A DNA stretch of 39,919 nucleotides. Source: Escherichia phage EG1. The DNA is taken from sequence record MG488277. One strand, written 5' to 3'. The translations under genes and the position numbers were made by a program. Every line of letters begins with the position of its first letter. The stretch's first letter is position 1. This document shows, one piece after another, positions 6,499 to 39,919 of this stretch. The notes under the pieces are model-generated. The model searched no databases and had not been told where the DNA came from. It saw only the letters and a program-made list of their open reading frames with translations.

Positions 6499-6576
6499 AC
6501 CTTAAGGTTTAACTTTAAGACCCTTAAGTGTTAATTAAAGATTTAAATTAAAGACTACTAAGAGAGGACTTTAAGT
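6499..6576. other. AT-rich region downstream of phi1.1A/B, probable primary replication origin
   Basis: ttaaggtttaactttaagacccttaagtgttaattaaagatttaaattaaag; in T7 the primary origin is the AT-rich segment after these promoters. Confidence 0.55.
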
Positions 6577-18524: not shown

Positions 18525-18590
18525 TAAACTCAAGGTCCCTAAATTAATACGACTCACTATAGGGAGATAGGGGCCTTTATGATTATTACT
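18521..18590 (+). promoter_or_regulatory. R6.5: RNase III site R6.5 with embedded promoter
   Basis: gtgataaactcaaggtccc...ggggcctttatgattattac flanking the phi6.5 promoter, as in T7. Confidence 0.7.
18545..18567 (+). promoter_or_regulatory. phi6.5: T7-RNAP class III promoter phi6.5
   Basis: taatacgactcactataGGGAGA. Confidence 0.95.
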
Positions 18591-18621
18591 TTAAGATTTA
18601 ACTCTAAGAGGAATCTTTATT

Positions 18622-37354: not shown

Positions 37355-39123
37355 GGAAAGGTACATCCGCTCAGTCCAATCGTAATGCGCTCGTTGTGGC
37401 GCAACTAAAGGGCGACTTCGTGGCGTTCCTGTTCGTCTTATGGAAGGCGTTAAATCTACCAGTGCCCACTAAGTGCCAAATAGACATGGCTAAGGTGCTG
37501 GCGAATGGGGACAACAAGAAGTTCATCCTACAGGCTTTCCGTGGTATCGGTAAGTCATTCATCACCTGTGCGTTCGTTGTGTGGTCATTATGGAGAGACC
37601 CTCAGTTGAAGATACTTATCGTATCAGCCTCTAAGGAACGTGCAGACGCTAACTCCATATTCATCAAGAACATCATTGACCTACTGCCGTTTCTCAGTGA
37701 GTTGAAGCCGAGACCCGGACAGCGTGACTCTGTGATTAGTTTTGATGTTGGTCCTGCTAGTCCTGACCACTCGCCTAGTGTGAAATCAGTGGGTATCACC
37801 GGCCAGTTAACTGGTAGCCGTGCTGATATTATCATTGCGGATGACGTTGAGATTCCGTCTAACAGTGCGACTATGGGTGCCCGTGAGAAGCTATGGACTC
37901 TCGTTCAGGAGTTCGCTGCATTACTTAAACCACTGCCTTCTTCTCGTGTTATCTATCTTGGTACACCTCAAACTGAGATGACTCTCTATAAGGAACTTGA
38001 AGATAACCGTGGGTACACCACTATCATCTGGCCTGCTCTATACCCAAGGACTCGTGAGGAGAACCTCTACTACTCTCAGCGTCTGGCCCCAATGCTCCGT
38101 GCGGAGTACGAGGAGAATCCTGAGGCGCTGGCTGGTACTCCTACAGACCCTGTTCGATTCGACAGAGACGACCTACGTGAGCGTGAGTTGGAATACGGTA
38201 AGGCTGGCTTTACGTTACAGTTCATGCTTAACCCGAACCTGAGTGATGCCGAGAAGTACCCTCTGAGGCTCCGTGACGCTATCGTAGCGGCCTTAGACTT
38301 AGAGAAAGCACCAATGCATTACCAGTGGCTTCCGAACCGTCAGAACATCATTGAGGACCTTCCTAACGTGGGTCTTAAGGGTGATGACCTGCATACATAC
38401 CATGAGTGCTCAAATAACTCTGGTCAGTATCAGCAGAAGATTCTGGTCATTGACCCCAGTGGTCGCGGTAAGGACGAAACAGGTTACGCTGTGCTGTATA
38501 CCCTCAACGGTTACATCTACCTCATGGAAGCTGGTGGTTTCCGTGATGGTTACTCCGATAAGACCCTTGAGCTACTCGCTAAGAAAGCTAAGCAATGGGG
38601 AGTCCAGACGGTTGTCTATGAGAGTAACTTCGGTGACGGTATGTTTGGTAAGGTATTCAGTCCTATCCTGCTAAAACACCACAACTGTGCTATGGAAGAG
38701 ATTCGTGCTCGTGGTATGAAGGAGATGCGCATTTGTGATACCCTTGAGCCAGTCATGCAGACTCACCGCCTTGTCATTCGCGATGAGGTCATTCGGGCAG
38801 ACTATCAGTCCGCTCGCGATGTAGACGGTAAGCATGACGTTAAGTATTCACTATTCTACCAGATGACTCGTATCACTCGTGAGAAAGGCGCTCTGGCACA
38901 CGATGACCGATTGGATGCCCTTGCGTTAGGCATTGAGTATCTCCGTGAGTCCATGCAGTTGGATTCCGTTAAGGTCGAAGGTGAAGTGCTTGCTGACTTC
39001 CTTGAAGAACACATGATGCGTCCTACGGTCTCTGCTACGCATATCATTGAGATGTCTGTAGGAGGAGTTGATGTGTACTCTGAGGACGATGAGGGATACG
39101 GTACATCTTTCATTGAGTGGTGA
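37351..39123 (+). CDS. 19: Terminase large subunit (gene 19)
   Basis: 590 aa. Confidence 0.95.
37997..38242 (+). CDS. Embedded alternative-frame ORF at the T7 gene 19.2 position
   Basis: 81-aa ORF whose start sits at the T7 19.2 start after applying the local offset; no independent support. Confidence 0.25.
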
Positions 39124-39204
39124 TTTATGCAGTAAGATTGCATAGGGATGCACTATAGACCACGGATGGTCAGTTCTTTAAGTTACTGAAAAGACACGAT
39201 AAAT

Positions 39205-39227
39205 TAATACGACTCACTATAGGGAGA
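39205..39227 (+). promoter_or_regulatory. phiOR: T7-RNAP promoter phiOR
   Basis: taatacgactcactataGGGAGAGGAGGG. Confidence 0.9.
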
Positions 39228-39381
39228 GGAGGGACGAAAGGTTACTATATAGATACTGAATGAATACTTATAGAGTGCATAAAGTATGCATAGTAGTGCA
39301 CCTAAAGTGACCTCTAAGAATGGTGATTATATTGTATTAATATCACCTTAACTTAAAGTCCAACATAAAGGGAGGAGACTC

Positions 39382-39531
39382 ATGTTCCGCTTATTGTTGA
39401 ACCTACTGCGGCATAGAGTCACCTACCGATTTCTTGTGGTACTTTGTGCTGCCCTTGGGTACGCATCGCTTAACGGAGACCTCAGTTCACTGGAGTCTAC
39501 CGTTTGCTCTTTACTCACTTGTAGTGATTAA
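39382..39531 (+). CDS. 19.5: gp19.5-like small protein
   Basis: 49 aa MFRLLLNLLRHRVTYRFLVVLCAALGYASLNGDLSSLESTVCSLLTCSD; SD gggaggag; below ORF-track cutoff. Confidence 0.8.
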   Translation: MFRLLLNLLRHRVTYRFLVVLCAALGYASLNGDLSSLESTVCSLLTCSD

Positions 39532-39769
39532 GGTCTTCCTGACCGACTGACGGCTCACCGAGGGATTCAGCGGTATGATTGCATCACACCACTTCATCCC
39601 TATAGAGTCAAGTCCTAAGGTATACCCATAAAGAGCCTCTAATGGTCTATCCTAAGGTCTATACCTAAAGATAGGCCATCCTACCAGTGTCACCTAAAGA
39701 GTTGCTTAGAGAGGGCCTAAGGAGTCCCTAGAGGGTCCTTTAAAATATACCATAAAAATCTGAGTGACT

Positions 39770-39919
39770 ATCTCACAGTGTAAGCGCCCAAGGTTCCCCC
39801 CATAGGGGTACCCAAAGTCACTCCTTTGGAGTGCCGGACCTTGAGGAGGCCTTGAGGATGGCCCAGAGAGACCTTGAAGAGGGTCCTAATGTTACCGTGG
39901 GAGTGCCTCCTTGTCCCTA
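39770..39919. repeat. Right direct terminal repeat (truncated by window end)
   Basis: Identical to bases 1-150. Confidence 0.9.

Follow-up and report, generated by a model that had tools for sequence, protein, structure and literature searches.

Bacteriophage T7 is a reference system for transcription-primed DNA replication, with the mitochondrial replisome as a relative, and what the A+T-rich regions of its origins do has so far been described only generally. A classical T7 origin consists of a promoter and an A+T-rich region, with no inverted repeat required. Mitochondrial OriL is a stem-loop in displaced single-stranded DNA, with a T-rich loop where the T7-like mitochondrial RNA polymerase starts the primer. 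Here we report a conserved stem-loop, hairpin B, near the right end of Escherichia phage EG1 (record MG488277; its 39,919 nucleotides (nt) are the whole stretch analysed, hereafter the window), in the leader between the promoter φOR and gene 19.5. The origin function of the φOR region is already known; the conserved B stem-loop within it has, as far as we could establish, no curated entry.

Transcription from φOR starts at the G at 39222 (+1), and the leader from there to the gene 19.5 ATG at 39382 is 160 nt long, just as an earlier sequence-only reading of this DNA had measured it. That reading had noted two palindromes in the leader, A and B, starting at +55 and +101; both lie where it placed them, although in the string it quoted for B (gtgattatat...taatatcac) complementarity is limited to the outer part. 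Between the end of B and the ATG lie 34 nt. The features on which the comparison rests are these:

39322-39347, unstranded: hairpin B, arms GGTGAT (39322-39327) and ATCACC (39342-39347) around the 14-nt loop TATATTGTATTAAT (39328-39341)
39313-39359, unstranded: A+T-rich trough centred on the B loop, with the G+C fraction over 30 nt (30-nt GC) falling to 0.17
39205-39227, plus strand: φOR, a perfect T7 class III promoter consensus, TAATACGACTCACTATAGGGAGA; the T7 homologue is annotated 'T7 promoter phiOR'
39371-39531, plus strand: Shine-Dalgarno (SD) sequence GGAGGAG and gene 19.5 (49 aa, ATG at 39382)

Judged by comparison among relatives, B is a real element maintained by selection. The regions compared were drawn from GenBank phages, IMG/VR contigs and metagenomes, and a B-type hairpin was defined as at least 6 perfect base pairs (bp), at least three of them G/C, closing a 10-20-nt loop of at least 70% A+T. 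We found such a hairpin, wholly within 80 nt of the 19.5 start, in 76 out of 87 distinct leaders, and its background frequency in 73.5 kb of the relatives' flanking coding DNA is 0.12 per kb; relaxed criteria bring in MmP1, Kaz2018, L022, and Pseudomonas-type and environmental relatives. As controls, Autographiviridae of about 50% identity gave three matches in 33 segments of 450 nt, and the stretch of 260 nt that follows gene 1, taken from 76 distinct genomes, gave only the invariant φ1.1B hairpin of the T7 group and two singletons. At least 13 different complementary stems were found, across at least ten genera. GGTGAT/ATCACC is the stem of T7, T3, Erwinia L1 and Pseudomonas T7-like phages and recurs as an inner repeat in KP32-like phages, GGTTGT/ACAACC that of 13a and Tarrare, and GGTGGTG/CACCACC that of Ebrios and PZL-Ah1. 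Further stems are GGGATG/CATCCC, GGATGG/CCATCC, GGATGA/TCATCC, GGATGGT/ACCATCC, GGTGTT/AACACC, GAGGGTG/CACCCTC, AGAGGGT/ACCCTCT, GAGGGT/ACCCTC, GGAGGG/CCCTCC and GTGGTA/TACCAC.

The six inner pairs of B are paired in essentially all 19 distinct arm pairs, with 46 cells altered on both sides. The covariation score is 0.78 versus 0.22 ± 0.04 in shuffles (0 of 500 shuffles reach the observed value), and sliding the partners gives at most 0.33. Plain MAFFT aligned the hairpins out of structural register, so the arms were anchored on the loop-closing pair for counting pairs; an alignment of this kind is fitted to the structure and biased towards pairing. For this reason, RNAalifold on an unanchored MAFFT alignment of seven whole leaders serves as the unfitted check, and it returns exactly one consensus helix, which is B. 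On the EG1 sequence alone B is better than shuffles by a marginal amount (RNA -6.9 kcal/mol, z -1.9; DNA -4.2 kcal/mol, z -2.2). The sequence-only reading had proposed RNA folding and comparison with the right end of T7 as checks: B is part of both the minimum-free-energy (MFE) and the centroid folds of the φOR transcript and A is not in the MFE fold, while in T7 A is identical and B differs by one loop base. It had further held that a lack of conservation or predicted structure would dispose of its palindromes; B, as the sole consensus helix and with compensatory changes in its arms, outlasts that objection, and A does not.

The loop is under a different kind of constraint. In every lineage it measures about 12-19 nt and is at least 70% A+T, with no constraint on its sequence. 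Among KP32-like phages with the AGAGGGT stem, the majority loop is reverse-complemented in 3 of 21 distinct leaders (14 of 15 positions identical); thus L113, L136 and L140 carry an inverted 15-nt loop between the same AGAGGGT/ACCCTCT arms as L105 and others, about 37 nt before the 19.5 ATG. A loop found in both orientations implies that the arms of B pair in DNA at least occasionally and that either orientation is tolerated. Minute inversions of hairpin loops are described in chloroplast non-coding DNA, and the KP32-like loops resemble them, as does the occurrence of a TGCATAA motif on either strand in different genera; the chloroplast case, however, is a mutational phenomenon and not a function.

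The distance of B to the 19.5 ATG is narrow across relatives (19-55 nt), and that from φOR ranges from about 64 nt in 13a to more than 200 nt in Yep-phi. In the latter (L065), eleven tandem 13-nt units (GTGACTACTCTTA) are inserted between a TGCATA cluster and B, with the B-to-19.5 distance kept. The φOR leader of 13a-like phages is only about 100 nt long, unrelated in sequence and without TGCATA motifs, yet it ends in GGTTGT..ACAACC, and the 13a-like gene 19.5 region is more than 92% identical to EG1 from 39360 on. In 13a-like phages, SM9-3Y and Yep-phi (L002, a subset of L007-L021, L063 and L065) an inserted HNH endonuclease gene separates gene 19 from φOR. Where a 19.5 homologue sits directly behind another open reading frame (ORF), without a leader (L246/L247), there is no hairpin. 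In two viable T7 clones with reduced genomes, T7_30S and T7_230L, recombination between two ATAGAGTCA repeats has removed most of gene 19.5. The 19.5 SD and ATG are missing from T7_230L as well, and both clones retain φOR, A and B.

Like the known T7 origins, B lies about 100 nt after a perfect T7 promoter in one of the four most A+T-rich patches of the genome. The lowest 30-nt GC troughs genome-wide (GC 0.10-0.17) are at 432-483, 6520-6565, 18574-18609 and 39313-39359; these four, 0.1% of positions, lie 14-104 nt downstream of φOL, φ1.1A/B, φ6.5 and φOR, and the trough minima at all other promoters are 0.23-0.27. Both sequence hallmarks of a T7-type origin are thus found here: a perfect φOR consensus reading into B, and an A+T-rich stretch shortly past the promoter, at +104. 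The difference is that at φOR a covarying stem of 6-7 bp, conserved from genus to genus, clamps the patch. There are four B-type hairpins in the whole genome; one, CTTAAGG-TTTAACTTTAAGAC-CCTTAAG with a 14-nt loop (6501-6528), directly follows φ1.1B in the primary origin region, and another overlaps φ6.5. In T7, φ1.1A/B is described as the primary origin, with φOR and φ6.5 as secondary origins (PMC8373140). A φOR fragment is able to act as a plasmid's sole origin, probably via an R-loop, according to a statement made at second hand in PMC8373140, citing Rabkin & Richardson 1988.

Based on these observations, we tentatively suggest, with somewhat less than even confidence, that B may be the A+T-rich core of the φOR-associated origin, bracketed by an inverted repeat selected for its complementarity. 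Several lines point this way: the loop is constrained in A+T content and length yet free in sequence and orientation; it centres one of four extreme troughs, all behind origin-named promoters; φOR is a documented secondary origin and another B-type hairpin directly follows φ1.1B; and B is retained where gene 19.5 has been destroyed. In such a scheme the T7-type RNA polymerase would start at φOR, open the duplex and transcribe the purine-rich start (GGGAGAGGAGGGACGAAAGG), reaching about 100 nt downstream an A+T-rich patch where the RNA:DNA hybrid and the duplex would be weakest. There the transcript 3' end may be taken over by the phage DNA polymerase, and the displaced non-template strand may become accessible to the gene 4 helicase-primase. 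Through its G-rich and C-rich arms a single strand, be it nascent RNA, displaced DNA or both, would close into a stem bearing an A+T loop of 12-19 nt, and the closed stem could hold the opened state or present the loop as a single strand. Three parts of this scheme are inferred: that selection on the stem comes from origin function, which of the strands or molecules folds, and the step at which the transcript is handed over.

Several observations weigh against an origin role. The narrow B-to-19.5 distance and the variable distance from φOR would be more in keeping with a role linked to translation or to the mRNA. Extruding a cruciform from duplex DNA takes longer arms than 6-7 bp around spacers of 12-19 nt, and we reject that route; the predicted stabilities are small. 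The φ1.1B hairpin does not vary and is found in close T7 relatives only, no B-type hairpin follows gene 1 in KP32-like or Berlin-like phages (T3-like phages have a shorter-looped stem only), and the A+T patches of φOL and φ6.5 lack a hairpin clamp. A general origin architecture of promoter plus clamped A+T hairpin is set aside on these grounds, with the φ1.1B hairpin limited to the T7 group and φOL and φ6.5 unclamped. In addition, PhageMaP found most intergenic insertion sites at the T7 genome ends to be non-essential (PMC11482910).

A close rival, which we regard as quite possible though doubtful, is that B acts on the transcript as an RNA stem-loop of the φOR/gene 19.5 mRNA leader, formed co-transcriptionally. 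It might offer an A/U-rich loop upstream of the ribosome-binding site (a standby or S1-type enhancer), organise the initiation region or slow RNase E entry. Presence in the MFE and centroid folds of the φOR transcript, the sole RNAalifold consensus, a stem of normal RNA hairpin size and a distance to the ATG that holds at 19-55 nt while the promoter distance varies about threefold are all as such a leader element would have it, as is the lack of a hairpin at the leaderless L246/L247 homologue. Gene 19.5 is, moreover, the most abundant late transcript in wild-type T7 (PMC6938266). A loop that can be inverted with nothing else changed, however, is not one whose sequence is read in RNA. For a stability element, 12-19 nt is a large and destabilising loop size, B lies about 100 nt from the 5' end without a U-run, and it is kept in viable T7 clones whose 19.5 is untranslatable. 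Wobble variants pull both ways: L116 stays paired through U·G, and L086 (two loci) has an A·C on the plus strand that would be G·T only on the minus strand; these are the only two informative cases, and they point in opposite directions. Nor is the 3' arm consistently complementary to the true SD across lineages: an anti-SD switch, in which the 3' arm would pair with the 19.5 SD, was dropped, as the match is good only in Kaz2018 (CCTCC versus GGAGG) and weak or absent in T7, KP32-like phages and Dev2.

It is very unlikely, in our view, that B is instead a palindromic operator for a dimeric phage or host DNA-binding protein, with the arms as half-sites and the covariation reflecting co-evolving specificity. 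The recurrence of GGTGAT/ATCACC in T7, T3, Erwinia L1 and Pseudomonas T7-like phages, and of the inner repeat in KP32-like phages, would suit a recognition site, as would a 5' arm that is always G-rich (56 G versus 0 C over distinct stems), a non-random property unexplained by pairing alone; it identifies no strand, because the arms of an inverted repeat make it true of both. Near relatives nonetheless differ in their arms (T7 GGTGAT versus 13a and Tarrare GGTTGT), T3 and T7 share theirs, and a spacer varying from 10 to 19 nt would not be tolerable for a rigid dimer. T3 and T7 differ in packaging specificity, and we know of no candidate protein. Least plausible of all is a functionless B, a neutral inverted repeat kept by descent in an A+T-rich leader. 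The marginal excess over shuffles on EG1 alone and the general tolerance of insertions at the genome ends would agree with neutrality, but at least 13 complementary stems at the same place, a hairpin in 76 of 87 leaders against 0.12 per kb, and 46 both-side changes do not, the paired changes being beyond what descent alone can produce.

Should B be part of the origin, it would give a concrete, mutable element for asking how the transcript of a T7-type polymerase becomes a replication start; should the RNA-leader explanation be true, it would be a leader element controlling the most abundant late transcript. φOR fragments are also in use as origins of plasmids and in constructs for T7 packaging and transduction, where knowing the constrained nucleotides helps design.

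The resemblance of B to OriL is one of form only. Both have a short G/C stem and an A/T-rich loop of roughly 12 nt, the replication machineries of the two systems are related (a T7-like RNA polymerase, a gp4-like helicase and a family A polymerase), and in terms of the duplex the orientation of the loop would not matter for function; the stem of B has 6-7 bp versus about 11 in OriL. A wider proposal, which we think unlikely, is that T7-like phages share an OriL-like module, a G/C-clamped stem with an A+T-rich loop that would fold in the φOR-displaced strand for replisome loading or priming, and that together with an orientation-independent TGCATA cluster this would form a conserved right-end cis architecture coupling late transcription, replication and possibly concatemer processing. 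Lagging-strand priming in T7 is carried out by the gene 4 primase at GTC-containing sites, and the B loop contains no GTC-containing primase site. The gene 4 primase recognises GGGTC, TGGTC and GTGTC; TGGTC is found on the minus strand 10 nt after B in T7 and most relatives (GGACCA/AGACCA), and EG1 has GTCCA instead.

Described RNA hairpins of T7 and its host offer further points of comparison. The hairpins of the T7 φ10 leader and of the E. coli ompA 5' end have small loops and work from the 5' terminus itself or from no more than a few nt inside it; B shares with them a place in an untranslated leader, here that of an abundant late mRNA of the phage, but it begins at +101 and has a 14-nt loop. 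Because of where they start, B and also A (+55) are rejected as 5'-terminal mRNA stabilisers. The T7 RNase III sites (R0.3 ... R18.5) are irregular helices of about 20 bp or more, and the terminator Tφ is a G+C-rich stem followed by a U-run. These are intergenic hairpins in T7 transcripts, as B is, but with stems of only 6 bp A and B are far too short for RNase III sites, and we take them not to be among the ten that are named. No U-run follows B on its 3' side, and a terminator scan of 39222-39381 gave no site, its sole match (39158-39171) lying upstream of φOR; A and B are rejected as intrinsic (class I) terminators. Rfam 15 gave no credible match in 38900-39919 at E ≤ 10, and we likewise discard A and B as members of a known RNA family. 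The sequence-only reading had seen both palindromes as likely RNA structure and stability elements; a predicted and conserved structure holds for B and not for A, and a stability role for B is weakened by its internal position and large loop.

In many lineages short Ile/Val-rich frames open at an ATG that overlaps the 5' arm of B or immediately precedes it (39321-39341): MVIILY in T7, MVVIVITSPLSV in Kvp1, MVVILILIQP in Tarrare and MYGGINIIITT in MmP1, each closed by a stop, and MVIIVINTH... in pEp12-like phages. A small upstream ORF at B was rejected, since there is no properly placed SD and neither lengths nor stops are conserved. The ATG is probably a by-product of an arm made of A, G and T only.

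Palindrome A and the motifs around it were compared in the same way, using the following features:

39276-39290, unstranded: palindrome A, TGCATA-AAG-TATGCA, perfect 6-bp arms and a 3-nt loop; identical in T7
39260-39291, unstranded: alternative inverted repeat A' from the repeat finder, ATGAATACTT (39260-39269) and AAGTATGCAT (39282-39291)
39126-39154, unstranded: upstream TGCATA-type cluster, TATGCAGT-AAG-ATTGCATA followed by GATGCAC, between the gene 19 stop and φOR
end at 39123: gene 19 (large terminase)

Of two look-alike palindromes, the 'perfect' one, A, is the uninformative one. Palindromes of its class (at least 6 perfect bp, loop 3-5 nt) number 22 in the 39.9-kb genome, giving about 0.09 expected per 160-nt leader, and in 35% of dinucleotide shuffles the 100 nt separating φOR from B yield a perfect stem at least as long as the 6 bp seen in EG1. 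We consider it quite improbable that A functions by itself as a small hairpin, whether in RNA or in DNA. As an excised 23-mer it folds well (z -3.8 as RNA, -3.1 as DNA), it is retained in T7, EG1 and Tarrare, inverted TGCATA/TATGCA pairs at 0-3-nt spacing are seen again in Kvp1, Yep-phi, LET1 and MmP1, and there is a like hairpin, TATGCAGT-AAG-ATTGCATA, upstream of φOR. In its 42-nt context, however, z is -0.8; A is outside the MFE of the full φOR leader transcript, RNAalifold does not predict it in the seven-leader alignment, and it competes with the overlapping, mutually exclusive pairing of A', whose arms are complementary at 9 of 10 positions around a 12-nt loop holding GTGCATA. The palindrome is broken in Ebrios/PZL-Ah1 (TGCATAAAGACCGNA) and in Erwinia L1, replaced by two direct TATGCA copies in T3, Dev2 and Kaz2018, and missing from 13a, pEp12-like phages and PFP1; Kvp1 and Yep-phi have its arms swapped (TATGCA-aag/tag-TGCATA), and LET1 has the reverse complement. 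As a conserved hairpin A is therefore ruled out, by chance-level frequency, lack of a consensus fold and breakage in relatives.

What is conserved among relatives is the TGCATA/TATGCA hexamer itself and not palindrome A as a hairpin, which is one local arrangement of a cluster of this motif. The hexamer has 17 copies genome-wide, five of them within 39126-39292 (167 nt) and flanking φOR on both sides; ATGCAT has two copies in the whole genome. In 14 of 19 Studiervirinae lineages one to three TGCATA/TATGCA copies occur at about +45 to +75, on either strand. Counterparts of A' in other genera are long stems (8-18 bp) whose loop holds a TGCATA motif, with 10 bp in Erwinia L1, 11 bp in a pEp12-like phage, 12 bp in L024 and 8-18 bp in KP32-like phages; the long-stem signal in this region has a combined shuffle p of 6e-5, and EG1 itself gives p = 0.35. 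Among relatives the hexamers are frequently found beside a TGAATGA/TCATTCA motif, and in EG1 TGCATAG-N3-TGCAC is a direct repeat at 39139 and 39287. The upstream cluster at 39126-39154 forms a small hairpin in the fold of the read-through RNA. GGTGAT is present at the gene 19 stop (TGG TGA T, 39119-39124) as well as in the 5' arm of B (39322-39327), and in a read-through fold (MFE -59.2, z -4.0) the copy at the stop pairs with the 3' arm of B.

The sequence-only reading had described this region as bordering the packaging and concatemer junction, which does not agree with the map. The first 149 nt of the window, a complete T7-like genome, are repeated exactly at 39771-39919, and the right terminal repeat thus begins 424 nt past B and 480 nt past A, with gene 19.5 and about 240 nt intervening. 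Across 39100-39600, EG1 shares 96.0% identity with T7 and 98.0% with Yersinia phage vB_YenP_WW2; over the φOR-to-19.5 stretch its identity with phage PHB19 is 99.5%. No T7 record lacking this stretch was found in the phage collection searched.

Some minor features of the other troughs and of the surrounding DNA were also recorded. Inverted hexamers TCCCTA ... TAGGGA bracket φ6.5 (18536-18565), the 3' arm being promoter positions -2 to +4 and the 'loop' the promoter itself, and the A+T trough at 18574-18609 comes after this bracketed promoter. A TTGACT hexamer, probably the -35 element of the A1 host promoter, follows immediately on a stretch that the φOL trough overlaps. Downstream of gene 19.5 there is an imperfect 19-nt inverted repeat, AGGGATTCAGCGGTATGAT / ATCACACCACTTCATCCCT (39561-39601); it was considered as a possible processing hairpin, but its T7 counterpart is deleted, with most of 19.5, in viable reduced clones (MZ375238, MZ375277), and the repeat is therefore dispensable. 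Between gene 19 and φOR, the terminator-like match at 39158-39171 is a hairpin, GACCA-CGGA-TGGTC, which places the primase site TGGTC on both strands, in T7 too. It covaries among relatives, with GGCC..GGCC in Ebrios, PZL-Ah1 and 13a-like phages, GGGAC..GTCCC in Erwinia L1 and GCCAC..GTGGC in pEp12-like phages, and its loop stays ACGGA-like throughout.

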